Shown: positions 25,241 through 40,522 of the stretch, in pieces
How the letters are laid out: each line of letters opens with the position of its first letter
How positions within the stretch are numbered: the stretch's first letter is position 1
Notes under the pieces: generated by a model
Told to the model about the DNA's origin: nothing
Seen by the model: only the letters and a program-made list of their open reading frames with translations
Databases searched by the model: none
Made by a program: the position numbers and the translations under genes
From: an uncultured Gemmatimonadaceae bacterium
GTDB lineage: Bacteria; Gemmatimonadota; Gemmatimonadetes; Gemmatimonadales; Gemmatimonadaceae
Length of the DNA stretch: 64,000 bases
Assembly: GCA_963829055.1 (NCBI GenBank)
Contig: CAWHHI010000004.1
Location: forward strand, 768,001-832,000
Reading direction: 5' to 3'

Positions 25241-25939
25241 TTACTTCCCGGTTCTGAATGTTTCGGTCCGCTGCTCATACCGGCGCTTTTCGCCCCCGAG
25301 CAGCCGAGTTGCCAGAGTGGAAAGTCCCCGGCCTAACGCGGTCCCCGGATTTCGTTTGCCGCGCACCGCGGGACGCAGCTCGCCGCTCAGCCAGCGTTCC
25401 ACTTCATCGAGATCGGACATCGACAGCACTTCGACCTCGAGGGACACGATGTAGTACTGACGGGCGCGGGCGCGTCGGGCCGGAAGCGGCGCCGTGTACG
25501 GGCGAGCGATCGCCGCCTGCGCGTCCTCATAGCGTTCGAAGCGGCCGAGGTTCTCTGCCTTGTTCCCGATCACCCTCGCCACCCGGTACGTCTTGGTCAG
25601 CGGCTCGTAGCGAACGAACACGTCCCACTCGATCGACGCCTCGATGTCATCGAACCAGCCACCGCGCGACCACAGATCGGCACGGTAATGCAGGTTCGCG
25701 GGGAAGCCGTTCTGCAGCAGCTTCTGCAGTTCGCGATCGGCGATGACGTTCGCGGTGCGAATGACCGGTCCGGCGGGAGCGGGCGATGCGGCAGGCAGCG
25801 ATACGTCGATTCCCGCAGCCTGCTGCACAATGGCAGGCGCGTCCGCGCGATCAGGCTGGTCGCGGCGCGCCGACTGCTGCGCAATCGCAGCAGTGGCCAT
25901 GGATACCACCAGAACCAGCGCGCCCGCGAACGATTGCAC
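25241..25939 (-). CDS. Exported protein, DUF4390-like
   Basis: Signal peptide; LQNGFP..LHY..L, W, VRYEPLTKTYRV pattern resembling DUF4390; two-component locus context. Confidence 0.6.
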   Translation of the reverse strand: MQSFAGALVLVVSMATAAIAQQSARRDQPDRADAPAIVQQAAGIDVSLPAASPAPAGPVIRTANVIADRELQKLLQNGFPANLHYRADLWSRGGWFDDIEASIEWDVFVRYEPLTKTYRVARVIGNKAENLGRFERYEDAQAAIARPYTAPLPARRARARQYYIVSLEVEVLSMSDLDEVERWLSGELRPAVRGKRNPGTALGRGLSTLATRLLGGEKRRYEQRTETFRTGK

Positions 25940-25942
25940 GGT

Positions 25943-27688
25943 CTAGAACCGTTTGCCAACGCGAATAAAAAAGTTCGGCGGTTCCTTCGAGTCCGACACG
26001 GACTTCGCGACGTACAGCCCGAAGAGGCCGGCGTCGAACCCAGCGCCGATGTCCGTCTTGAACGTACCGAGCGACGGCAGGTCACCCTTCGGATATTGCA
26101 AGTCGCCGATGCGCTCGCCGACGAGCCACCCGCGTCCGGCGTCCGTGAACACCACCCACTGAGCGCGGTGCTGCCAGCCGCTGTTGCGCCACGAATTGAA
26201 GTGGAGATTGTCGAACAGCGACATCCAGAGATCGCCGCGATACTCCGCCTGCACGAGCACCATCCGCTCGCACTGCGCCGGCACGCCTAACGGGATGGTG
26301 GCACCATCGCTGCATTGACGAACGTCAGTGTCGGACCCGGTTCGCCGGAACGGAAACCCGTCGAGCGCTCCAGGCCCGCCAAGAGAAAACCGGCGCTGGA
26401 GTGGTAGCTCGTCTCCGTTCAGCCAACCGCCGGCCACGACGCGGAAGTTGAGCTGTCCTTCGGGCGACAGACGGTTATAGCGCCGGAGATCGAGGAACCC
26501 ACGCGAATAGGCCATGGAACCAGCCGACGCTGCGTCGCGTACGCCGGGTGACGTCGGACCTAACGCCGTGAGTGCGCCGGTGCCCCGCTCGTAATCAGCC
26601 GTGATCTTCCAGCCCGATCGCGGATCATCATTATCGCTGCGCGTATCGATGCGCAGGGTCCCATTCGCGACGTGCAGCGTGCCTTCGTCGAGCGTGGGGT
26701 TCGGACGCCAGTCCTGGCCGTTCCGGAAGAGCGTGAATGGATCGAGCGTGTTCAGTGATACCCAGCGCTCATCGCTGAGGGACGCGGTGACGTCGACGCT
26801 CCTCGAGAGCGAGAACCTGACGTAACCGGACCCGCCGTGGCGGCTGTAGTAGTCGCGGAAGTCTCGGTGCAGGAAGAACGATGACAGCCCGACCTCGGCA
26901 TCGGACAACTGCCACGCCTCCACCGGATCCACCACGTCGAACAGCCGCCCGCCGATCGCCAGGCCCTCGGCACGGCCAAACGACAGCTCGGTCTTCAGGT
27001 TGTGGCCGACGGTCTGCGAGTTCCACTCGAGCTGATCGCCCGTCCTGAACACGCCGAGCGCATCGATCTCGAAGCGGCCGTCGCCGAAGCGATGACCGAA
27101 TGACGGGCCGATGAGAATCGGCAGGCCCTCGACGCGATTGTAGGTCTTGGCCGACACGAGGCGCAGTTGACTGTAGTTGCGCGAGTGCCAGTTCTGACGC
27201 CATCGCCACCAGCGTGCATCCTCCTCGCTCGACCCGGACGCGATCAGGTGGTCCCCTTCGCGCCGGTACGTGAGGCGTTGCTTGTACGTCCGGACGTCTC
27301 CGCCAATGAACGCGTCGTCCTTCCCATCGACGCCTCCGCCGACGACGATGATCTGCCCTTCGACGCGCGCACCTGGCTTGAGGATCACGTCCGAGTTGAT
27401 CGCGACCACGCGTCCGTTCACGCGCCCGGCAATCGTGAGCGGCCCGTTCAGAACCGCGACGTCACCGGGGATGACGCGGTCCGCTTCGATCTCGTAGGCG
27501 CCGGTGGCGCGGACGGTCGTCCCCGAGTTGAACGCGTCCGTGACCTCGCGCTCGATCTCAGGAGGTAAAAGCCGGGTATCGAGAACCGTGTCGCGCGGCG
27601 TTGCCGGCTGCTGCGCGCCGACCGGCGTGAGAGGAGCGACCGCGCACATCAACGTGGCGAGTGCGCGAGTCGCGAAGAGCTTCTTCAT
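25943..27688 (-). CDS. Outer membrane protein: N-terminal beta-helix-like repeats plus BamA/Omp85-like barrel
   Basis: Signal peptide, GDVAVLNG/GRVVAINS/GQIIVVGG repeats, YNRVEG, RFSLGG..LDGF, FTDAG, terminal Phe. Confidence 0.78.
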   Translation of the reverse strand: MKKLFATRALATLMCAVAPLTPVGAQQPATPRDTVLDTRLLPPEIEREVTDAFNSGTTVRATGAYEIEADRVIPGDVAVLNGPLTIAGRVNGRVVAINSDVILKPGARVEGQIIVVGGGVDGKDDAFIGGDVRTYKQRLTYRREGDHLIASGSSEEDARWWRWRQNWHSRNYSQLRLVSAKTYNRVEGLPILIGPSFGHRFGDGRFEIDALGVFRTGDQLEWNSQTVGHNLKTELSFGRAEGLAIGGRLFDVVDPVEAWQLSDAEVGLSSFFLHRDFRDYYSRHGGSGYVRFSLSRSVDVTASLSDERWVSLNTLDPFTLFRNGQDWRPNPTLDEGTLHVANGTLRIDTRSDNDDPRSGWKITADYERGTGALTALGPTSPGVRDAASAGSMAYSRGFLDLRRYNRLSPEGQLNFRVVAGGWLNGDELPLQRRFSLGGPGALDGFPFRRTGSDTDVRQCSDGATIPLGVPAQCERMVLVQAEYRGDLWMSLFDNLHFNSWRNSGWQHRAQWVVFTDAGRGWLVGERIGDLQYPKGDLPSLGTFKTDIGAGFDAGLFGLYVAKSVSDSKEPPNFFIRVGKRF

Positions 27689-27916
27689 GCGATCTCCGAG
27701 GAGGAATCGAGTCGCGCACACGCTAGGCACTGTCCATACCGGTGCCTGACCAGAGTCCTGAGGCACGGTACCGACAAACACCGCAACGGGTTCCCGAATC
27801 CGCAAGATACCACCCGCCTTGTCCCGGTGTCCTTTCGTGAGGTCGTGGGTGTGTCGGGCCGTTACGCCGTCCGCAGTAAGCGTGTCACACGCACCGAGCC
27901 CGGAACGGCGCGCGGG

Positions 27917-29357
27917 CTAGGCGCGGCGCGACTCGACGGGCGAGCTCGACGGCGTGTCTGCACGCTCGCTCCGATCCCCTCGATCGGGTTCGACGATGCC
28001 GAGTCGCTTCATCCTGCGGTACAGGTTCGGCCGATCCGTTTGCAGCCTGCGCGCGGCCTCTGCGATGTTGCCGCCCGCGACGGAGAGTGCGCGTGTGATG
28101 AGAACGCGCTCGTATTCATCGAGCGTATCGGTAAGCGGAGTATCCAGCGCCGCCGCGTTAGGTAGCGTCGGAGGGTGCGGGGAACGCGCTGACGCCACCG
28201 GCAGCACTTCACGCACGTCGTCACTCGTGACCTGGCGGCCGGGGTAGAGAATCGCGAGTCGCTCCACGATGTTCGCGAGCTCGCGGATGTTCCCTGGCCA
28301 GCGATGCCGCGCGAGCGCGTCGAGCGCGTCGGCGCTCCACGACGTGAGCGGCTGCCCGGTGCGTCCGCGGTGCAGGGCGGAGAAATGGCGTACGAGGGCT
28401 GGGATGTCGTCCGGCCGTTCGCGCAGTGGGGGGATCGCGAGCGGAATGACGTTCAGCCGAAAGAACAGGTCCTCGCGGAACGTGCCGTCCTCGACAGCGC
28501 GCGTGAGGTCCTTGTTCGTTGCCGAGAGGATGCGAACGTCGATCCGGATGGGTTTTCCCCCGCCGACGCGCTCGATCTCACCGGACTCGATCGCCCGCAA
28601 CAGCTTTGCCTGGGCCTCGGCACCGAGGTCCCCAACCTCGTCCAGGAGCAGCGTGCCGCGGTCTGCCAGCTCGAAGCGGCCGATGCGGCGCTCTGTCGCA
28701 CCGGTGAACGCGCCTCGCTCGTGACCGAACATTCTCGCTCTCGACGAGATCGCGTGGAATGGCCGCGCAGTTGACCCGAATGAACGGCCGATCCTTGCGT
28801 GCTCCTCCGGCGTGAATCGCCGCAGCGACGAGCTCCTTGCCCGTTCCTGATTCCCCGGTGATCAGCACGCGCGCGTCCGACGGTGCGACGCGCGCGATCA
28901 TGTCGCGCACTCGCCGGAGCGCAGGGCTCTGGCCGATCATCTCGCCGGCGAGCCCGAGGTCGGCGCGCAGGACGCGTGCTTCTCGCCTTGCGTGCCGCAG
29001 CTCGAGCGCCGATGACAGTGCCAGCAGCACGCCTTCAGGCGTGAGCGGCTTCTCGAGGAAGTTGAACGCACCGAGCTTGGTGGCGTGCACCGCATCGCTC
29101 AGCCCGGCGCGACCGCTCATCATGACGACAGGCAACTCGGGCGTGCGCTCGCGAAGGGCGGCGAGAACGGCCATGCCGTCCATCTCGCCGGGCATCATGA
29201 GGTCGACGAGCGCGACGTCGGGCTCCGCCTCGGTCGCGAGCGCGACACCGCGGGCGCCATCGGGCGCCTCACGGACCTCGTAGCCTTCCGAAGTGAGCAA
29301 CGCGCCCACCATGCGGCGGATGTTCGGCTCGTCGTCAACGATGAGGACGGAGGGCAC
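27917..29357 (-). CDS. Sigma-54-dependent response regulator (NtrC/NtrX family); frameshift near 28735
   Basis: VLIVDDE receiver, GESGTGKE, VNCAAIP, GAFTGA, LLLDEVG, FREDLFFRLN, WPGNIREL, Fis-type HTH. Confidence 0.95.
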
Positions 29358-29363
29358 GACCGC

Positions 29364-29943
29364 CTAACGTGCTTCGCGCGCGCGCAGCGGAACAGCGACG
29401 CGGTCGGCGCCGGGATCTCCCTGCGGGAGCGAGCGCATCTCGGCCATGACCTTCGTCGTGAAGCGCTGGCCTTCGGAGATGCGCTCGACCTCTACGGCGA
29501 TCGATTCTACCGCCTGCTCGATGCGCTCGAGTCGTGCGCGCGTATCGGAATCGGCTCCGGGCGTAACCGCGTTGCGCCTGTCCATGCGTCGCGCGATTGC
29601 CCGTGCGATGGGGAATCCGATCGCGATCACGGCGCACATGATGAAGAACGCCACGGAGATGATGATCGCCCCTTCAGGAACCTGCGGCCCGGAGTTCGGA
29701 AACGGCGGGAACATTATTTCCGGCCGTCCATTCCGCCCGGCACGCCCGGCCTCGCGTTGCGCGTCGCGAATGGCGCGCGCCGCTTCACGGGCGGCCTCGC
29801 GTGCAGCCTGCGCGGCCTCCTGCGCAGCCTGCTGCGCTTCCTGTTGGGCGGCGGCTGCTTGCTGTTGCGCCGCCTGCTGCCTGTGTCTGCGCCTGTGCCT
29901 GCGCCTGCTGCGGGCCTGCCACTGCGATCGGTTCAACGGCCAT
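29364..29943 (-). CDS. Membrane protein of the EQA..EVER..EGQRF family, paralogue D (Gln/Ala-rich N-extension); indel near 29882
   Basis: GGAGG-AAACC-ATG at 29943; TM segment then RARLERIEQAVESIAVEVERISEGQRFTTKVM. Confidence 0.8.
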
Positions 29944-30268
29944 GGTTTCCTCCATTTCCATTCGTTCCATCGGCGCCCAGGCGACGGTTTGCGGACGACC
30001 CGACGCCCTCACCGAAACGCTCGGCCAGCAACTTTGTCGTGAAACGCTGGCCCTCCGACATCCGCTCCACCTCGATCGCAATGGTGTCGACGGCCTGTTC
30101 GATGCGCGACATGCGATCCTGAACGTCCGGCGAGAGATCGGGTTGCGAGGCCTTCTTGCGAACTTGCAGACTCTGCACGTACGCCTGCCCGATCGAGACG
30201 ACCGTGATGGCGACGGTCGCACAGACGCCCAACGCGATGATCGCTTGTGCTGCGTCGTTCATGAGCAT
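29933..30268 (-). CDS. Small membrane protein, same family, paralogue C
   Basis: GGAGG upstream; TM segment then DRMSRIEQAVDTIAIEVERMSEGQRFTTKLL. Confidence 0.85.
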   Translation of the reverse strand: MLMNDAAQAIIALGVCATVAITVVSIGQAYVQSLQVRKKASQPDLSPDVQDRMSRIEQAVDTIAIEVERMSEGQRFTTKLLAERFGEGVGSSANRRLGADGTNGNGGNHGR

Positions 30269-30289
30269 GATCCGGGTCCTCCGCGTTCT

Positions 30290-30583
30290 CTACGAGTTAC
30301 GATTCGCGTCCGAGAGCGGCAAGGCAACGCGCTCCGGTGATCGATCGGTCATGAGCCGCGTCACGAACCGCTGCCCCTCGGCGATCCGCTCCACCTCGAT
30401 CGACATTGCGTCGATCGCCTGCTCGATGCGCTCGAGCCGCGCCGCGGTATCGGGCTGCTGGGCGGGCAGGGCACTCTGGCGATCCCACCGCCTCACGAGA
30501 CCCCGGACCAGCGGAATCCCGATCGACAGGATGATCGCCGTCACGAAGAACGCAATCGGCACGACAATGTCTTCATCCCACAC
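30290..30583 (-). CDS. Small membrane protein, same family, paralogue B
   Basis: GAGAGGA before GTG 30583; TM segment then ARLERIEQAIDAMSIEVERIAEGQRFVTRLM. Confidence 0.85.
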   Translation of the reverse strand: MWDEDIVVPIAFFVTAIILSIGIPLVRGLVRRWDRQSALPAQQPDTAARLERIEQAIDAMSIEVERIAEGQRFVTRLMTDRSPERVALPLSDANRNS

Positions 30584-30596
30584 TGGTTTGATCCTC

Positions 30597-30893
30597 TCAG
30601 TCTCTGCGCGCGAGCGCGCTGTCGGGTCGACCGGCATCGGCGCGACCCGCGAGGAGCTTCGACGTGAAACGTTGTCCCTCGGCGATTCGCTCGACCTCTA
30701 CCGCAATGGCATTGATCGCCTGCTCCATACGCTCGAGCCTCGCGCCTATCTCGTTAGGCACCGATTCCGGCGAGCCGCCACGAACACCGTGTTCGATTCG
30801 TCGCGCGATGGCCCGCGCGATCGGCGCGCCGATGACGGTGATCGGAACCATTGTGAAGAGCACGATCGGGATCAGCTCACCGGGAATCCGCAC
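30597..30893 (-). CDS. Small membrane protein, same family, paralogue A
   Basis: GGAGG before GTG 30893, overlapping the kinase 3' end; TM segment then ARLERMEQAINAIAVEVERIAEGQRFTSKLL. Confidence 0.85.
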   Translation of the reverse strand: MRIPGELIPIVLFTMVPITVIGAPIARAIARRIEHGVRGGSPESVPNEIGARLERMEQAINAIAVEVERIAEGQRFTSKLLAGRADAGRPDSALARRD

Positions 30894-32139
30894 TGACAGC
30901 CTCCGTTGCGTCGATGCCCGCCGCGGGCAGGGTGAAACGAATCTCGGTTCCATCGCCCACCGAGCTACTCGCGTGGACCGCACCATTGTGTGCGAGCACG
31001 GTCTGCCGCGCGATCGCCAGGCCCAGGCCGGTACCGCCAGGTTTATGCGTCACATACGGCTCCCAGATACGAGCCAGGCGATCGGCGGGAATTCCGCAGC
31101 CCGAGTCGCGCACCGAGATGATGATGCCGTCATCGCCATTCCGACGCTCGCGCGCGACTGTGACGCCGATCCGCGCAGGGCGGTCCGGTCGGCTCGTGCG
31201 TTCGGTGCGACACGCGTCCACGGCGTTGAGCAAGACGTTGGACAGCGCGCGGGCGAGTGCATCGTGATGGCCGCGAACCATAGGTACGTCTCCCTCGACG
31301 CGAACATTGGCTTCCACATCAGGAGGGACCGACGCCCTGGTCGTGTAGCGCACGAGCTCTGCGACATTGATCTCTGCCGCCGGACCCTCGGGGAGTCGCC
31401 CGAACTGCGAGAAGCTGCGCGCCATGTCTTCGAGCCGCTTCGACTCCACGTCCAGCACATCGACCGCATCGGAGACCGATGCCGGCGCTTCGCGCCGCAG
31501 GCGCGCGATCGCGAAGCGAATGGGGGTCAGCGGATTCTTCAGCTCGTGCGCCACTTGTCTCGCTGATTCACGGAAGGCACGTAGACGTTCAGCATCGATT
31601 TCACGAGCACGTGCGTCTCGCAGCTCGCGCGCGACGGACCGCATGCGAGACCGTAGCACCGCGAACTCCGGCGCGCCCTTTCGCGCCACTCCTTCGGGAA
31701 GCTCCTCGCCTCGCCCGAGCCGATCGGTCCAGCCGACCAATTCGTCGATTGGGCGGCTGAGCTGGCGACTCAGGTGACCTGCCACGCGCGATGCCACCAC
31801 GATCAACAATCCCATCGCGATAACGGCGATCAACGCGATCACCGGCACCGCGCGCTGGGCAATGAACCCGAACCGTCGAGCCTGCGTGAGCGATTCCTGG
31901 AGCTCGAGCTCATGAGCCCGAAGCGCCGCTCGGTCAGCCGGCGAAAGCGGCGCCTGCTGCGCCGCCGCTATCGCTCTGCCGCCGGTCGTGGCCGCGCGTT
32001 CCCACGCCGCGCTGCCGCTCACGAGCGGGATCGCCCTCGTCAACGTGCCCGCCCATACCACCGTGAGAACGACCGAGGGCAGCGTCGCAAACAGCGTGAG
32101 GATGAGGAACAAGCGCGTTCGGAAGCCGACTGGCCTCAC
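30877..32139 (-). CDS. HAMP-domain sensor histidine kinase (NtrY-like)
   Basis: Two TM segments, HAMP, AHELKNPLTPI H-box, NVLLNA, DSGCGI, TKPGGTGLGL-like G2 box. Confidence 0.95.
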   Translation of the reverse strand: MRPVGFRTRLFLILTLFATLPSVVLTVVWAGTLTRAIPLVSGSAAWERAATTGGRAIAAAQQAPLSPADRAALRAHELELQESLTQARRFGFIAQRAVPVIALIAVIAMGLLIVVASRVAGHLSRQLSRPIDELVGWTDRLGRGEELPEGVARKGAPEFAVLRSRMRSVARELRDARAREIDAERLRAFRESARQVAHELKNPLTPIRFAIARLRREAPASVSDAVDVLDVESKRLEDMARSFSQFGRLPEGPAAEINVAELVRYTTRASVPPDVEANVRVEGDVPMVRGHHDALARALSNVLLNAVDACRTERTSRPDRPARIGVTVARERRNGDDGIIISVRDSGCGIPADRLARIWEPYVTHKPGGTGLGLAIARQTVLAHNGAVHASSSVGDGTEIRFTLPAAGIDATEAVSADSR

Positions 32140-32223
32140 TCGGGCTCCTTACGGCATGGCCAAGAAGGTGGTTTCGTAGAAGATACGCTCTGGCACGGAC
32201 CCTCACCACGAGCCTTCGCCACC

Positions 32224-33433: not shown

Positions 33434-35338
33434 ATGAACTCACGTCATCCGCGGCCGCCTCGCGCCCCCATCGCCCCGATTCACCGGGGTCCCCAGGCGA
33501 TATCGGCCAGCAGCGGCCCGATTCACACGCACGCGCCTAACGCCGCGCTCCTCATCGACTTCGACAACGTCACGATGGGGATTCGCTCCGACCTGCAGCA
33601 GGAGCTTCGCCATCTCCTCGGGTCCGAGATCATCAAGGGCAAGGTGGCCGTGCAGCGCGCGTACGCCGACTGGCGCCGCTACCCGCAGTACATCGTCCCG
33701 TTGGCCGAGTCATCGATCGACATGATCATGGCGCCGGCGTACGGGTCGTCGAAGAAGAACGCGACCGACATCCGTCTGTCCGTGGACGCCATGGAGCTGG
33801 TGTTCACGCGTCCCGAGATCGGTACGTACATCCTGCTCTCCGGCGACTCGGACTTCGCGAGCCTCGTGACGAAGCTCAAGGAATACGGGAAGTACGTGAT
33901 CGGCGTCGGCATCCGGGAGTCGTCGAGCGATCTCCTCGTCATGAACTGCGACGAGTACTACAGCTACAACGCGCTCGCGGGGCTGGTGAAGGCGGGTGAC
34001 GAGGAAGTCGTGAAGTACGACCCGTGGGAGCTCGTGAGCGAGGCCATCAAGCGCATGGCGCAGAACGGCGACGTTATGCGGTCGGATCGCCTGAAGCAGG
34101 TCATGCAGGAGATCGACAATTCGTTCGACGAGAAGAACCTCGGCATCTCGAAATTCTCGCGCTTCTGCCTCGAGGCCGCGCAGCGCGGGCTGATCTCGGT
34201 GAACAAGCTCGAGAACGGCCAGCTCGAAGTCGCGCTGCCGCGCGACGTCGGCGCCGTAGCTGGCGACGCGGAAGACGCGACGCCGCGTCTCGTAACGTTG
34301 CCTGACGAGAATGGCGCACGCGCGCCGCGGGAAGGGAAGGAGGGGCGCGAGGAGCGTGGTCGTCGCGGACGTCGCGGGCGTGGACGTGGGCGCGACCGCG
34401 AGGATCGTGGACCGCGCGTCGACACCTCCGTCGTGGCCGCGGGTGATGTGTCCGTGGCGCCGGAAGTCGACGAAGAAGATACGGCTACGCCGCCACACGG
34501 CGACAAGCTCGCGCACTCGGCGGCGCCCTCTGATACACCCGGTCGTACCGCGGCGCAGCCAGAGCCTGTCACGGCCACCGCGGGCGCGGTGTCGAGTGGA
34601 ATCGGTTCGAGTGGCGAACGCCTAACGCGGCAGGAAGCGTTCAGCCTCGTCGGCCGCGCTGTTGCCGCGCTCACGTCCGGCGATCGCGCTGTCCCGGCGA
34701 GCCGCGTTCGCGAGCAGGCCTTCACGCTCCTCGGCCGCGATAGCGAGAGTCTCAGCGAGCGCAACTTCATTCGCATCCTGAAGGACGCGCATGATGGTGA
34801 TGTGGTCGACCTGCGGCGTCGTGGAGATGACTACGAGGTCGCAGTGGCGGCGCAGGTCGCACCTGTCGCCGACCAGTTGAACCGCGCAGCGGCAGCAAAC
34901 GCGCCTGCGGCGCGGCCGGCTAGCGCGGCGCCAGTTCCACGAGGCATGGGGCCGCGTGGCGCGGGCGTACGCGGTCGCGGGCCGGCCGGCCGTGGGTCGG
35001 CGCCGCCGCCGGATCTGCTGTTGTTAGGCGTCGTCGAAGAAGCAGCGCCGCCGGCTACCACGATTACCGCATCGCTTACGCCGGTCGAGGACCGTCCCGA
35101 ACCAGCCGATGTGGAGGCACCGGTCGCGATCATCGAGGACGCCGCCGCACCGAAGCGTGGACGAGGCCGCAAGAAGGTCGCGGCGAAGAAGGCCGCGGCA
35201 AAGACCCCGCGAGCCACTCCCCCTGCTGCACCCGCGCCTGAACCCGTGGCGGAGGTGGCGGCGCCGCCGGCCGGGCGCCCTGCGAAGTCGCGGCGCGGTC
35301 GTGGGAAGAAGAAGGTCGTCGCAGCGGTCGAGGGATGA
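33434..35338 (+). CDS. NYN (LabA/DUF88, PIN-like) domain protein with OST-HTH/LOTUS-like domains and disordered regions
   Basis: [58 protein letters not shown]-like motif. Confidence 0.88.
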
Positions 35339-35971
35339 CTGCTGCGCGCTCAGGCCGCGCGCTTCCGATGTCGTTTTACGATCGCCCCACCGAGCAGGTC
35401 GCGCGCGACCTGCTCGGTGCGGTGCTCGAATGCACCACACCATTGGGGACGGCCTCGGGCAGGATTGTCGAAACCGAGGCCTACCTTGGTCCTGATGATC
35501 CGGCCTGCCACGCGGTAGCAGGACTTACGGAGCGTACGCGGAACCTCCACGGTCCCCCGGGCATTGCGTACGTGTATTTCATCTGACGGCGTCCACTGGT
35601 GCTTCAACGCCGTCACACGCGAGGAAGGGCATGGGAGCGCGGTTCTCGTCCGCGCCGTGGAGCCCATCGCCGGCGTGGACCTGATGCGCGAGCGCCGCGG
35701 CAATGTCCGCCGCGATGTGGACCTGACGAACGGTCCTGGCAAACTATGTCAGGCGTTAGGCATCGACGGGGCGATGGATGGGACGCGCCTGACTCAGCCA
35801 CCGTTGCGGATTCTCGCCGCTCCCCCGGTCGAAGACGGCGACGTCGAAATCACTCCGCGCATCGGGATCACACGTGCGGCGGACTGGCCGCTTCGCTGGC
35901 TCGTTCGCGGCAACCCGTATGTCTCGGCCACTCGCCCACGCTCCACCAAGCCGCGCCGCCGCTCCGTGTGA
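35335..35971 (+). CDS. mpg: DNA-3-methyladenine glycosylase (MPG/AAG family); frameshift near 35584
   Basis: [23 protein letters not shown] then [34 protein letters not shown]. Confidence 0.93.
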
Positions 35972-37331: not shown

Positions 37332-38537
37332 TTAGATGATGCCGAGCTTCTTGCCCACCGTCTTGAACGCCGCTAGCGCCTCATCGATGTCCGCCTTCGT
37401 GTGCGCCGCCGACAGCTGGCATCGGACACGCGCCTGACCCTGCGGTACCACCGGATAGCCGAAGCCCGTCACGAACACGCCCTGCTCGAGCAGCATGTCG
37501 CTCATCTGAATCGCCAACGCGGTCTCGCCGACGATGATCGGCACGATCGGCGTCTCGCCCGCCAGCGGCTTGAATCCCGCTTCGGTGATCGCGTCCCGGA
37601 AGTAGCGCGAGTTCTCGCGCAGGATCGCTACTCGACCCGGATGCTTCTCGACGAACTCGATCGCCGCGAGGGAGCTGGACGCGACGGTTGGTGGAAGCGC
37701 ATTCGAGAAGAGCTGCGGACGCGAACGCTGCGTGAGGATGTCGCATAACGCGGTGGATCCCGCGACGAACCCGCCCGCCGCACCGCCGAGCGCCTTGCCC
37801 AGTGTGGACGTGATGACGTCCACCTCGCCGAGCACACCATAGTGCTCCGCTGTGCCGCGGCCGGTCTCACCGAGCACGCCGGTCGCGTGCGAATCGTCCA
37901 CGGCGAGTATGGCGTCGTAGCGACGCGCGATATCGATCAGCTCCGGAAGCTTCGCGATCGCCCCTTCCATCGAGAACACGCCGTCGGTCCAGATGAGGCG
38001 CCGCCTCGCGCCCTTCGCCTGCTCGAGCTTCGACACGAGATCGTCGAGGTCGCCGTGACGGTAGACGGCGCTCGTGCACTTCACGATCGACTTCGCGAGT
38101 CGGATGGAATCGATGATCGACGCATGATTCAACGCGTCAGAGACGACGAAGTCGCCCTCCTCGAGCACCGTCGACGTCAACGCTTCGTTCGCGCTCCAGG
38201 CGGAAACGAACGTGAGTGACGACTCCGCGCCGACGAATCGGGCGATAGCCTCCTCGAGCTCGCGGTGGATAGTGAACGTCCCGCAGATGAAGCGAACGCT
38301 CGCCGTGCCCGCACCGTACCGCCGCAGGCCGCGAATGCCCGCTTCGACCACACTGGGCTCATTGCAAAGCCCGAGGTAGTTGTTCGACGAGAGGATCAGG
38401 ACTTCGCCTCGCCCTTCCATCTGCACGCGCGCGGACTGCGGCGAGTCGAGGAAGTTGAGGCGCTTGTAGACGCGGTCGGTCTTGAGTTGCTCGATACGCG
38501 CGTCGAGCTGTGACGTGAAGGCAGTGTTCAGCGACAT
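37332..38537 (-). CDS. kbl: Glycine C-acetyltransferase (2-amino-3-ketobutyrate CoA ligase)
   Basis: SNNYLGL, SVRFICGT, DALNHASIID, DGVFSMEG, DDSHATG, TLGKALGG; adjacent to tdh. Confidence 0.96.
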   Translation of the reverse strand: MSLNTAFTSQLDARIEQLKTDRVYKRLNFLDSPQSARVQMEGRGEVLILSSNNYLGLCNEPSVVEAGIRGLRRYGAGTASVRFICGTFTIHRELEEAIARFVGAESSLTFVSAWSANEALTSTVLEEGDFVVSDALNHASIIDSIRLAKSIVKCTSAVYRHGDLDDLVSKLEQAKGARRRLIWTDGVFSMEGAIAKLPELIDIARRYDAILAVDDSHATGVLGETGRGTAEHYGVLGEVDVITSTLGKALGGAAGGFVAGSTALCDILTQRSRPQLFSNALPPTVASSSLAAIEFVEKHPGRVAILRENSRYFRDAITEAGFKPLAGETPIVPIIVGETALAIQMSDMLLEQGVFVTGFGYPVVPQGQARVRCQLSAAHTKADIDEALAAFKTVGKKLGII

Positions 38538-38595
38538 GGCGAAGTTATCGTTGTGCTTGTCGTGTACTCGTGTGTATTCGGGGAGGCGCCGCGCG

Positions 38596-39621
38596 TCAGG
38601 CAATCTCGAAGATGACCTTACCAGCCTCGCCCGATTTGATCACGCGCATCGCTTCATCAGCCTGCTCCAGCGGAAAGCGATGCGTGATGACTGGCGTGGG
38701 ATCGAACTCTCCGGACCGCAGGAAGCGCGTCATCTTGTGCCACGTGTCGTACATGCGCCGTCCAACGACGCCGTAGATCGTGATGCCTTTGAAGATGACT
38801 TCCGTGGCGAAGTTCACCTCCATGGGCTTGGCGGGAATGCCAAGCATTTGCACACGCCCGCCGACGCGCACGAGCGCGAACGCCTGATGAATCGCCGACG
38901 GCACGCCGGACATCTCGAGCACGACGTCCACGCCGAGTCCGTCAGTGGATGCCTTCACTGCCGCTTCGGCATCCTTGGGGTGCACGACGTCATGCGCACC
39001 CATGCGCCTCGCGAGATCGAGCCGCCGCTCATTCACGTCCGATGCGATGATGCGTGAGGCCCCCGCCGCCTTGCAGATGCCGACGGCAAAGATGCCGATC
39101 GGCCCACAGCCCGTGATCAACACCGTCGACCCGGGTATGTCGGCCGTGAGCGCCGTATGGAACGCGTTGCCCATCGGATCGTGGATGCCGCCGATGTCGA
39201 ACGAGACGTTGTCATCGAGGTGCCACACGTTCACCGCCGGCATCGAGATGTACTCGGCGAAGCAGCCATCGCGGTCGACGCCGATGATCCGCGTGAACGG
39301 ACAGACGTGAGCGTTACCGGTGCGGCAGAGCAGGCAGCGCCCATCGACGATGTGCCCCTCCGCCGTCACGCGATCACCTTCGCGAACATCGGTGACGAGC
39401 TTTCCGACCTCCACGACGTCGCCCGCGAACTCGTGGCCAACGACGATCGGCGGCTTCACACGACCGCGCGCCCAGTCGTCCCACTCGTAGATGTGCACGT
39501 CGGTGCCACACACGCCGGCGCGCCGTACTCGAATCAACACCTCATCATCGCGAATCGTGGGAACCGGGACGTCCTTGAGGAGGAAACCAGGGCCTGCGGT
39601 CTCCTTCACGAGCGCTTTCAT
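38596..39621 (-). CDS. tdh: L-threonine 3-dehydrogenase
   Basis: MKALVK, CGTDVHIYEWD.WA, GHEF, AEGH, DPMGNA.HT, GCGPIG, LEMSG. Confidence 0.96.
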   Translation of the reverse strand: MKALVKETAGPGFLLKDVPVPTIRDDEVLIRVRRAGVCGTDVHIYEWDDWARGRVKPPIVVGHEFAGDVVEVGKLVTDVREGDRVTAEGHIVDGRCLLCRTGNAHVCPFTRIIGVDRDGCFAEYISMPAVNVWHLDDNVSFDIGGIHDPMGNAFHTALTADIPGSTVLITGCGPIGIFAVGICKAAGASRIIASDVNERRLDLARRMGAHDVVHPKDAEAAVKASTDGLGVDVVLEMSGVPSAIHQAFALVRVGGRVQMLGIPAKPMEVNFATEVIFKGITIYGVVGRRMYDTWHKMTRFLRSGEFDPTPVITHRFPLEQADEAMRVIKSGEAGKVIFEIA

Positions 39622-39729
39622 CTGATGAGGGCTGGTAGGCGGAGGCTGACGACTCGCGCGACTCGGCGTGATTCGCGCGCGGTTTGCGCTCGGAAAGCTG
39701 GCCGCTCGGGTTGAGAGAGGGAAGCGGGA

Positions 39730-40522
39730 TCAGATCAGCGTCTGGATCTGACCACCATCGACCTGAATCGCCGTGCCGGTCACGAAGCTCGCACGCTCGG
39801 ACGCGAGGAATGCCACGACGGCGGCCATTCTCCTTAGGCTCACCGGCGCGCCCGACTGGAATGCCCCCAGCGCGAGTCTGCAGAAGCTCGTCCACAGGTC
39901 GCTGCTCGCGGGCCGCGCGCATCTGCGCGAGCTCGAGCGCGCGCGGCGTATCGAAGTGGCCCGGGAGTACTGTATTCACGAGCACGTTGTCGCGCGCGCA
40001 TTCGTTCGCGAGCGTTTTCGCGAAACCCAGAAGGCCGGCGCGTGCGGTGTTCGACAGAATGAGTCCGGCCACTGGCTGTTTGGCCGCCATCGACGTGAGA
40101 AAGATCACGCGCCCCCACTTGCGAGCGCGCATACCCGGAACGCAGGCGCGCGCGAGACGAATCGAGCTCAGCAAGTTGAGCTGGATTGCGGCGACATACT
40201 GCTCGTCGCTCGTTGAATCGAAGAGCGTCGACGGGGGACCGCCTGCATTCGCGACGAGGATATCGATTGGCCCGAGCGACTCCTCGACGGCGCGCGCGAT
40301 CCGATCGGGCTCGCCATCCTTCGCGACATCACCGACGATGGGCAGCACGCGCGTTCGCGCAACCTTGAGGATGTCGGCGGCGGCCTGATCCAACTCCGTC
40401 TTTCGACGCGCGACGATGCCGACACTCGCGCCTTCGCACGCGAGCTCTCGTGCGATCGCGAAGCCGAGTCCGGAGGAGGCTCCGGTTACGAGGGCAACCT
40501 TACTGGTGAGCTTGAGGTCCAT
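39730..40522 (-). CDS. SDR family oxidoreductase; frameshift near 39830
   Basis: TGASSGLG, ANAGGPP, SNTARA, VNTVLPG; C-terminal FLASERASFVTGTAIQVDGG in shifted frame. Confidence 0.92.

Follow-up and report, generated by a model that had tools for sequence, protein, structure and literature searches.

In Escherichia coli, PspB and PspC are the membrane partners of PspA, PspM belongs to the same functional class, and in the Lia system LiaF modulates LiaS. PspB (PF06667, TIGR02976), of the proteobacterial pspABC operon, is small, with a membrane helix at its N-terminus and a helical domain in the cytoplasm, and PspB duplicates within that operon are known (PMC11237479). LiaI of Bacillus subtilis (liaIHGFSR) is a small membrane protein that recruits the PspA homolog LiaH (PMC7619361) and is encoded with a two-component system. 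In the same organism SigW, whose promoter reads TGAAAC/CGTA (PMC5758882), controls pspA and floT (PMC3498285), and in Bordetella PlrP, a DUF4390 protein, is a periplasmic partner of NtrYX-family kinases (PMC13001219). In this study, we analyzed four tandem genes, P1 to P4, each encoding a protein with one predicted transmembrane (TM) helix, which lie between a sensor histidine kinase gene and its response regulator gene. They are found in a stretch of 64,000 nucleotides (the window) from an uncultured Gemmatimonadaceae bacterium (contig CAWHHI010000004.1, positions 768,001 to 832,000). With moderate confidence, we read P1 to P4 as PspB/LiaI-like inner-membrane partners of PspA (bacterial ESCRT-III) that have moved away from pspA and have been kept in its regulon.

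The genome of the window is G000, whose assembly is 86% complete; f1 is Gemmatimonadaceae, the family of the window, f2 and f3 are sister families, and the outgroup comprises other orders. An unpublished genome (G013) supplied one kinase locus, one pspA locus and one promoter of the training set described below, as well as rows of the tree, the PspA alignment and the control sets; every conclusion stands without it.

The preliminary description of the window had reported four consecutive same-strand genes, each with its own ribosome-binding site, one hydrophobic segment and a common motif, and this proved exact. The motif is present in all four proteins and is complete only there in a six-frame scan of the window, GGAGG or AGGA lies 5-9 nt before each of the four starts, and a single hydrophobic peak of 19 residues (Kyte-Doolittle 2.2-2.9) occurs in each protein, with 3-5 Lys or Arg in the 15 residues behind it. 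The proteins share 38-49% identity with P1, and the pairwise DNA identity is 57-65%; the four genes are therefore not an assembly duplication, and the earlier argument against a recent or artefactual duplication stands. P1 to P4 are four real, diverged paralogs with a shared conserved helix, EVERxxEGQRF. Their number is not fixed: four of six same-genus genomes have three copies, lacking P3, which was found only in G005 among these six. The array has three copies in G002 and four in G005. P4 and 33 of 104 Gemmatimonadaceae members are at least 130 aa long, with N-terminal extensions. Based on hydropathy, charge bias and an AlphaFold2 model of P2 (helices 4-38 and 44-80, mean pLDDT 88.7, pTM 0.43), a single N-terminal TM helix and a cytoplasmic helical domain are predicted, which supports the PspB-like size and topology proposed earlier. 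A Foldseek search against the PDB gave 0 matches, and a wide search with VIA-align returned only generic long helices and coiled coils (best Z 5.5, rmsd 4.9, 87 aligned).

No family of Pfam or NCBIfam names P1 to P4, and the motif, as first described, lies outside the named families of Pfam, NCBIfam and the PDB. The library matches to AtpE (P3, E 7e-4) and Erythro-docking are at chance level and were rejected. In the Atlas, 30 unnamed clusters are found among the matches listed, and the top three are commonest in Gemmatimonadota; the nearest named cluster contains PspB (score 0.77; 18-19% of members) and is a weak lead. A 59-row profile matched 6,133 representatives (50% identity, E up to 0.001) among 1.84 billion. 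With a profile of four sequences, 33 of 41 related genomes gave 1-11 matches each. G000 holds seven members, namely P1 to P4 and single copies on contigs C3, C4 and C17; a weak eighth match (C16) lies within a gas-vesicle-like gene and was rejected. A full-text search of open journals listed no paper on this small-protein family. In two Psp surveys (PMC11237479, PMC9239133), the string "Gemmatimonad" occurs 0 times in the main text and "Gemmat" 0 times in the supplements examined; their external data sets (a web app and OpARA) are outside this check and may list these loci.

Compared with PspB, P1 to P4 showed no match to the PspB hidden Markov models (HMMs) at E up to 1, and none occurred genome-wide in G000. 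For the sister-family arrays described below, one of 47 proteins matched PspB at E 7e-4, and the scores stay below cut-off (19 bits against 25.6; for one member with TIGR02976, 21.8 bits against 51.7). In both f2 genomes tested, the best genome-wide PF06667 match is an array member (E 0.005 and 0.26, below cut-off). The PspB profile itself is shallow, with 16 enteric sequences that are 85-92% identical, and may miss a remote relationship; the top 120 homologs of E. coli PspB are only close enteric ones. Unlike PspB, this family carries the motif EVERxxEGQRF / ERxDFAERLL and occurs in 1-11 copies per genome, its P1 to P4 genes are separate from pspA, and the promoter is of the extracytoplasmic function (ECF) type rather than PspF/sigma-54. 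P1 to P4 fall outside PspB by HMM cut-off, by position relative to the pspA operon and by PspC/PspF context. LiaI, for its part, belongs to the multi-TM LiaI-LiaF-TM family (PMC11237479), whereas P1 to P4 have one hydrophobic helix and no Pfam match to that family at E up to 1; the two-component genes here lie outside the pspA operon, and control appears to be exerted by an ECF sigma factor.

Starting from weak matches in f2 and f3, we came upon tandem arrays that stand immediately before a CesT/YbjN-like gene (PF22550) and pspA (PF04012). Copies adjoin pspA in all 14 sister-family pspA loci (2-10 copies), in 8 of 17 outgroup loci (one copy) and in 0 of 25 Gemmatimonadaceae loci; in G000, pspA sits on another contig than the window array. 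The eight outgroup single copies overlap or abut ybjN (gap -7 to +12 nt), and three loci of the sister families have an array that abuts pspA itself, no ybjN being called there. In this phylum the pspA locus pairs PF22550 (CesT_Tir_1) with PF04012, as in the CesT/Tir-PspA dyad (Ravi et al. 2024, PMC11237479); the partners described there, in the sections available, are band-7, AAA+ and polyamine proteins and not an array of single-TM paralogs. In HHalign, the Gemmatimonadaceae alignment matched the sister-family pspA arrays with a probability of 97.8% (E 8e-13) and the outgroup pspA-adjacent single genes with one of 98.4% (E 5e-15). TM and coiled-coil controls from the same genomes (AtpF and FtsB profiles) reached 0.5-25% against the family alignments; against the Gemmatimonadaceae alignment, AtpF (n=30) gave 14.9% and FtsB (n=27) 0.5%, and by profile neither look-alike resembles the family. 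With 40 + 40 shuffled alignments, the maximum scores were 18.6 and 45.8 vs 63.1 for the real one. Moreover, an HMM built from 16 sister-family pspA-array proteins and run against 133,556 six-frame segments of G000 ranked P1 best (E 4.4e-7) and placed P1 to P4 within the top 6. By these profile comparisons, the pspA-adjacent genes of the sister families and the outgroup are evidently homologs of P1 to P4. A quick, unrooted tree, built on 78 columns and 166 of 171 rows, separates the f2/f3 arrays from a second group, which consists of the Gemmatimonadaceae copies and three f3 orphans on long branches (SH-aLRT 99 each). These two groups suggest that the array expanded separately in the sister families and in Gemmatimonadaceae.

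The family was also compared with pspA and with the kinase across 48 genomes (kin not independent; kinase orthologs at E up to 1e-35). The family and a conserved pspA ortholog are both present in 37 genomes and both absent in 11, with 0 discordant. For the family and the kinase, 24 genomes have both, 13 have the family only, 2 have the kinase only and 9 have neither, so that 15 disagree. G115 (98% complete) and G117 (100%) have no PF04012 match, no family match and no promoter, and their kinase and regulator genes are adjacent; they belong to two genera whose other members carry the array. Joint absence of the family and pspA is also found in G131 and G139.

The promoter regions gave a third line of comparison. 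A GAAAC-N16/17-CGTA motif precedes both the pspA operon and the window operon. We trained a position weight matrix (PWM) on pspA-operon promoters only (n=41) and counted a match at 15 bits or more. Such a site lies before the first gene of 23 of 31 and 17 of 22 pspA operons (training set included), and the predicted window promoter scores 18.5 bits, with 10 nt between its end and the start codon of the kinase. Of 119 distinct kinase loci, 98 have an array and 21 have none; a site upstream of the kinase occurs in 53 of the former vs 0 of the latter, and its frequency differs with copy number (12/44 with one copy, 41/54 with two or more). A site in the last 400 nt of the kinase gene was found in 11 of 45 array loci that lack the upstream site vs 2 of 53 that have it (Fisher p 0.005, related genomes not being independent), in 1 of 21 array-less loci and in 0 of 119 mid-gene controls. 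These kinase-internal sites lie at several positions and would transcribe the array and not the kinase; they therefore point to the array as the regulated target. Outside both kinds of locus, the strict motif stands before 9 of 44 first genes of family copies vs 0 of 50 Omp85 upstream regions. A scan with the sigma-54 promoter consensus gave 0 matches in 216 upstream regions, and the earlier analogy with a PspF-like sigma-54 activator is thus unsupported here. Collectively, and with the caveats given below, sequence comparison indicates that the family is co-inherited and, by the predicted promoter, co-regulated with pspA.

Several details of these promoters may be recorded. At some kinase-internal sites (L041, L054, L349, L376), the -10 CGTA coincides with codons of the conserved WEPY/WDPY stretch of the kinase. 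The -35 lies at -35/-36 from the kinase start in 33 of the 53 array loci that have the site, and each small gene has its own ribosome-binding site. Because the predicted promoter is so close to the start, a kinase transcript that begins there would have almost no leader; the distance is larger at pspA operons, where about 55-60 nt or more follow the motif. The top PWM match before any G000 gene is the pspA operon. Further matches stand in front of a band-7 gene and of an operon next to a SigW-like sigma gene, whose product has SigW as its best NCBIfam match (150 bits; cut-off 209). At the latter locus (G000 C12:290677-294009, L387), the sigma gene is followed by the motif (21.1 bits), a putative anti-sigma gene, and genes for a membrane protein with a bactofilin-like segment and a protein with a LiaF-like C-terminal domain (both below cut-off); the bactofilin-like segment resembles that of the Omp85-like protein of the window. 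Thus far the setting is like the SigW regulon of B. subtilis, as G000 has the motif before pspA and a band-7 gene and a SigW-like sigma factor. A search for an autoregulated ECF sigma found none of 41 sigma genes reaching 15 bits upstream; two SigW-like genes (C12:290677-291285 and near C3:546784) are candidates for the sigma factor at work. The motif agrees with the SigW consensus of B. subtilis.

On the reading that P1 to P4 are membrane partners of PspA, envelope stress would release a SigW-like ECF sigma factor, and pspA and the array would be switched on together. Each paralog would insert in the membrane with its C-terminus in the cytoplasm, its basic amphipathic stretch would rest against the inner leaflet, and oligomerization and the docking of PspA at damaged membrane would fall to the conserved helix, about 37 residues long. 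The variable membrane and N-terminal parts may give different inputs or locations. As to history, a single gene before ybjN-pspA would have expanded in place in the two sister families; in Gemmatimonadaceae, the gene would have moved and expanded separately, and the host operon would have acquired a pspA-type promoter. We infer the steps that lead from co-regulation to PspA binding.

A number of observations weigh against this reading. All of the evidence is genomic, and contact with PspA is a prediction; a complex prediction for PspA(1-228) and P2(22-86) gave 0.02 vs a mark of 0.32, and since the controls were not folded and the fold of the partner is uncertain, it speaks neither way. The direction of the move follows from parsimony on the distribution, as the tree is unrooted, quick and based on 78 columns, and 9 of 17 outgroup pspA loci have no adjacent copy. 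In Gemmatimonadaceae, the array stays in the kinase operon with genes that overlap or abut, and a kinase modulator would show the same. Neither promoter site reaches 15 bits in 34 of 98 array loci, mostly single-copy ones (23/44), and across the genome the strict motif is no commoner than expected (45 sites vs 47), so that only its position is informative. Against PspB, three alignments gave HHalign values of 4.8%, 12.6% and 34.7%, and controls reach 25%; PspC (PF04024) occurs in only 8 of 41 genomes and was not found in G000 (86% complete). Furthermore, four additional genomes (52 in total) bring three discordant cases: G023 and G024 (81% complete) have pspA and no family match, and G002 (84% complete) has the family and no pspA found. 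G110 has pspA and only one weak family match (E 3e-4). In five f4/f7 genomes, the best match belongs to a subfamily linked to bshC- and murJ-like genes (described below) that lacks the promoter, which inflates the co-occurrence. Finally, G115 (3.3 Mb) and G117 (1.8 Mb) are smaller genomes, and joint loss may partly reflect streamlining.

As members of one ECF envelope-stress regulon with pspA, the proteins might protect the membrane through their own homo- or hetero-oligomers, without docking PspA, but this is rather doubtful. Such independent protection would explain the shared promoter and the old gene linkage equally well, fits the many orphan copies (1-11 matches per genome), and has a parallel in Yersinia, where PspB and PspC alone prevent secretin toxicity (PMC3708866). 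The joint absence with pspA in G115, G117, G131 and G139, and the overlap or near-overlap with ybjN-pspA in eight outgroup loci, fit a dependent partner better.

The preliminary description had favored another function, a hetero-oligomeric membrane complex that modulates the two-component system. In this account, the proteins were co-opted in Gemmatimonadaceae as membrane modulators of the NtrY/NtrX-like kinase and couple envelope stress to its output. The position of the genes speaks for it. Among 44 evaluable Gemmatimonadaceae genomes (G038 and G024, whose kinase contig has no visible regulator, were left out), 39 have 1-4 family copies inserted exactly between kinase and regulator, and five have none. 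Of the best 80 GTDB loci, to which that survey was confined, 73 lie between both genes, 6 beside one, 1 beside neither and 0 beside pspA; their record titles name Gemmatimonadaceae, Gemmatimonas, Gemmatimonadales or the phylum, and the same kinase-array-regulator arrangement is seen in a record titled Gemmatimonas phototrophica (L354), so that cultured relatives are probably at hand. The link of the homologs to the kinase and regulator thus recurs and is real, although in Gemmatimonadaceae copies also occur at scattered single sites. The upstream promoter also covers the kinase and regulator, the single-copy loci without a promoter may be expressed with the kinase alone, and NtrYX-family kinases use accessory proteins such as DUF4390/PlrP (PMC13001219).

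The link is nevertheless specific to one lineage. A kinase-regulator-Omp85 operon without any family gene was found in 13 of 13 f2/f3 loci and 4 of 4 outgroup loci; with DUF4390 included, the operon stands without the array in the 13 sister-family loci and in five Gemmatimonadaceae genomes. Of the 119 distinct kinase loci, 21 are array-less, among them every one of the 16 that come from other families. Conversely, 13 genomes have the family and no kinase ortholog match, and an obligate linkage to the NtrYX-type kinase across the range of the family does not hold. Moreover, copy number (0 to 4) and subtype vary freely, the many orphans share the motif of the array copies and are mixed with them in the tree, transcripts from the internal promoters would leave out the kinase, and the known accessory role is already filled by DUF4390. 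Modulation of the two-component system is therefore improbable as the main function, even less likely than independent protection. The HMM survey of range, copy number and neighborhood proposed at the outset upheld the kinase link within Gemmatimonadaceae and, class-wide, pointed instead to pspA by position, presence/absence and promoter; the earlier idea of an envelope-stress module is supported.

Very unlikely is a last account, in which the true partner is the CesT/YbjN-like chaperone (PF22550) or an ECF anti-sigma module and the proteins tune the stress signal and not PspA assembly: the outgroup gene overlaps or abuts ybjN and not pspA, and G023 has neither ybjN at its pspA locus nor the family, but three sister-family arrays abut pspA with no ybjN called, G017 and G022 keep 11 and 5 copies without ybjN at the pspA locus (a search limited to that locus), and no copy adjoins the candidate SigW-like sigma gene.

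The features of the window operon are listed in Table 1.

Table 1. Features of the kinase-array-regulator operon, with positions counted from the first letter of the window
Feature	Position	Strand	Description
Predicted ECF (SigW-like) promoter	32150..32175	-	-35 GAAAC 32175-32171, 17-nt spacer, -10 CGTA 32153-32150
Membrane sensor histidine kinase	30877..32139	-	Two hydrophobic segments, weak HAMP, HisKA, HATPase_c (Pfam)
P1, 98 aa	30893(GTG)-30597	-	Single predicted hydrophobic helix, basic amphipathic segment, conserved helix
P2, 97 aa	30583(GTG)-30290	-	Same architecture as P1
P3, 111 aa	30268(ATG)-29933	-	Most variable array member
P4, about 192 aa	29943(ATG)-29364	-	Long form; Gln/Ala-rich N-terminal extension before the hydrophobic helix
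NtrC/NtrX-type response regulator	27917..29357	-	Receiver, AAA+ with GAFTGA, helix-turn-helix
Outer-membrane beta-barrel (Omp85-like) protein	25943..27805	-	Start uncertain, 27805 or 27688; bactofilin-like N-terminal segment
DUF4390 protein (PlrP-like)	25241..25939	-	PF14334 E 1.6e-10

The operon runs in the order kinase, P1 to P4, regulator, Omp85-like and DUF4390. As first described, the array genes overlap or abut their neighbors: P1 begins within the kinase gene (overlap of 17 nt with its stop), P3 and P4 have 11 nt in common, and 6 nt separate the end of P4 from the regulator. The NCBIfam matches of the kinase are all below the equivalog cut-offs; it is NtrY-like by operon context, its H-box is presumably NtrY-like as well, and an ortholog occurs in 37 of 41 relatives. 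The best N-terminal NCBIfam match of the regulator is NtrX, below cut-off. The Omp85-like protein matches PF01103 (E 5e-4) and PF04519 (E 8e-4), both below cut-off, with an ortholog in 38 of 41 relatives. Similar to PlrP-PlrS-PlrR and NtrYX, a kinase, an NtrX-like regulator and DUF4390 share one operon; in contrast to those systems, the order here is kinase-array-regulator-Omp85-DUF4390, the regulator keeps its AAA+ domain, and no small-TM array is mentioned in the available part of the account of that system (PMC13001219). The window has one extra base in the regulator, at about 28732, that near-identical contigs lack in 3 of 3 DNA runs. Another, at about 29877, lies in P4 near its 5' end and is missing from the single DNA run with a near-identical contig across the site. 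Because the extra bases are missing from these public-run contigs, both frameshifts are most likely assembly errors; in four same-genus P4 orthologs, the Gln/Ala-rich N-terminus is intact. Contigs from the RNA of one soil run span parts of the operon; contigs cannot show level or a single transcript. Further genes of the window look frameshifted (35335-35971, an MPG-like gene split at about 35570, and 37332-40522), which fits an error-prone assembly.

Additional observations concern the family beyond the array. In a third subfamily (L093, L094, L097, L099-L101, L233, L235-L237, L245), a single gene without the promoter lies between two genes that we take, from their sequences, to be bshC-like and murJ-like (PF03023), followed by uvrC in f2 loci. 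Two near-identical 135-aa proteins of G000 (C20:169267-169674 and C9:91656-92063) have a Cys-rich, zinc-ribbon-like N-terminus and a C-terminal helix that resembles the sister-family motif, with no hydrophobic helix. Long orphan forms of 185-257 aa (L050, L077, L078, L080, L083, L104, L107, L109 and G000 C3:299106; seven group in the tree) show no obvious signal peptide; their hydrophobic helix follows a conserved, coiled-coil-like domain at the N-terminus. A C-terminal T-P-x, possibly a recognition motif, is found in 13 of 171 members (7/29 Gemmatimonadaceae orphans, 3/3 f3 orphans). Extra tandem arrays away from both pspA and the kinase occur in G076 (L240, three copies) and G067 (L243, two copies), with the promoter motif before the first gene at 16.1 and 16.3 bits. 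Among the orphan-copy neighbors listed, compared by eye with no library scan, no recurring partner was seen. A search for domain fusions among proteins of 208-2000 aa gave 17 matches in 7,994 scored; the four long ones examined, one of them with PF22550, appear to come from read-through or frameshifts in gene calling and are not taken as real fusions. L143-L148 (G001, G003, G004, G005, G007, G014) hold a second, divergent PspA-like gene (PF04012 E ~1e-10), whose operon also contains ABC transporter parts and a gene for a large lipoprotein-like product, with no family gene adjoining.

P1 to P4 belong to an unnamed, widespread family that, judged from its sequences, is probably a new variant of the Psp system. 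Neighborhood can mislead: the genes lie tight between a kinase and a regulator, and the position of their relatives, their joint loss and their promoter point to pspA. Only in a few model systems is it known how bacterial ESCRT-III reaches damaged membrane. Here, in a phylum common in soil, the short invariant helix of a large unnamed family is a candidate element for docking PspA, and nature supplies variants of 0 to 10 copies for comparison. More tentatively, Gemmatimonadota PspA could be served by a repertoire of interchangeable adaptors with one docking helix and differing sensing ends, which expanded twice and moved to an NtrYX-like operon, the same ECF promoter having re-evolved repeatedly, upstream of the kinase or inside it. 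If true, this possible arrangement would have its eukaryotic counterpart in ESCRT-III, which several adaptors direct to different places in the cell.

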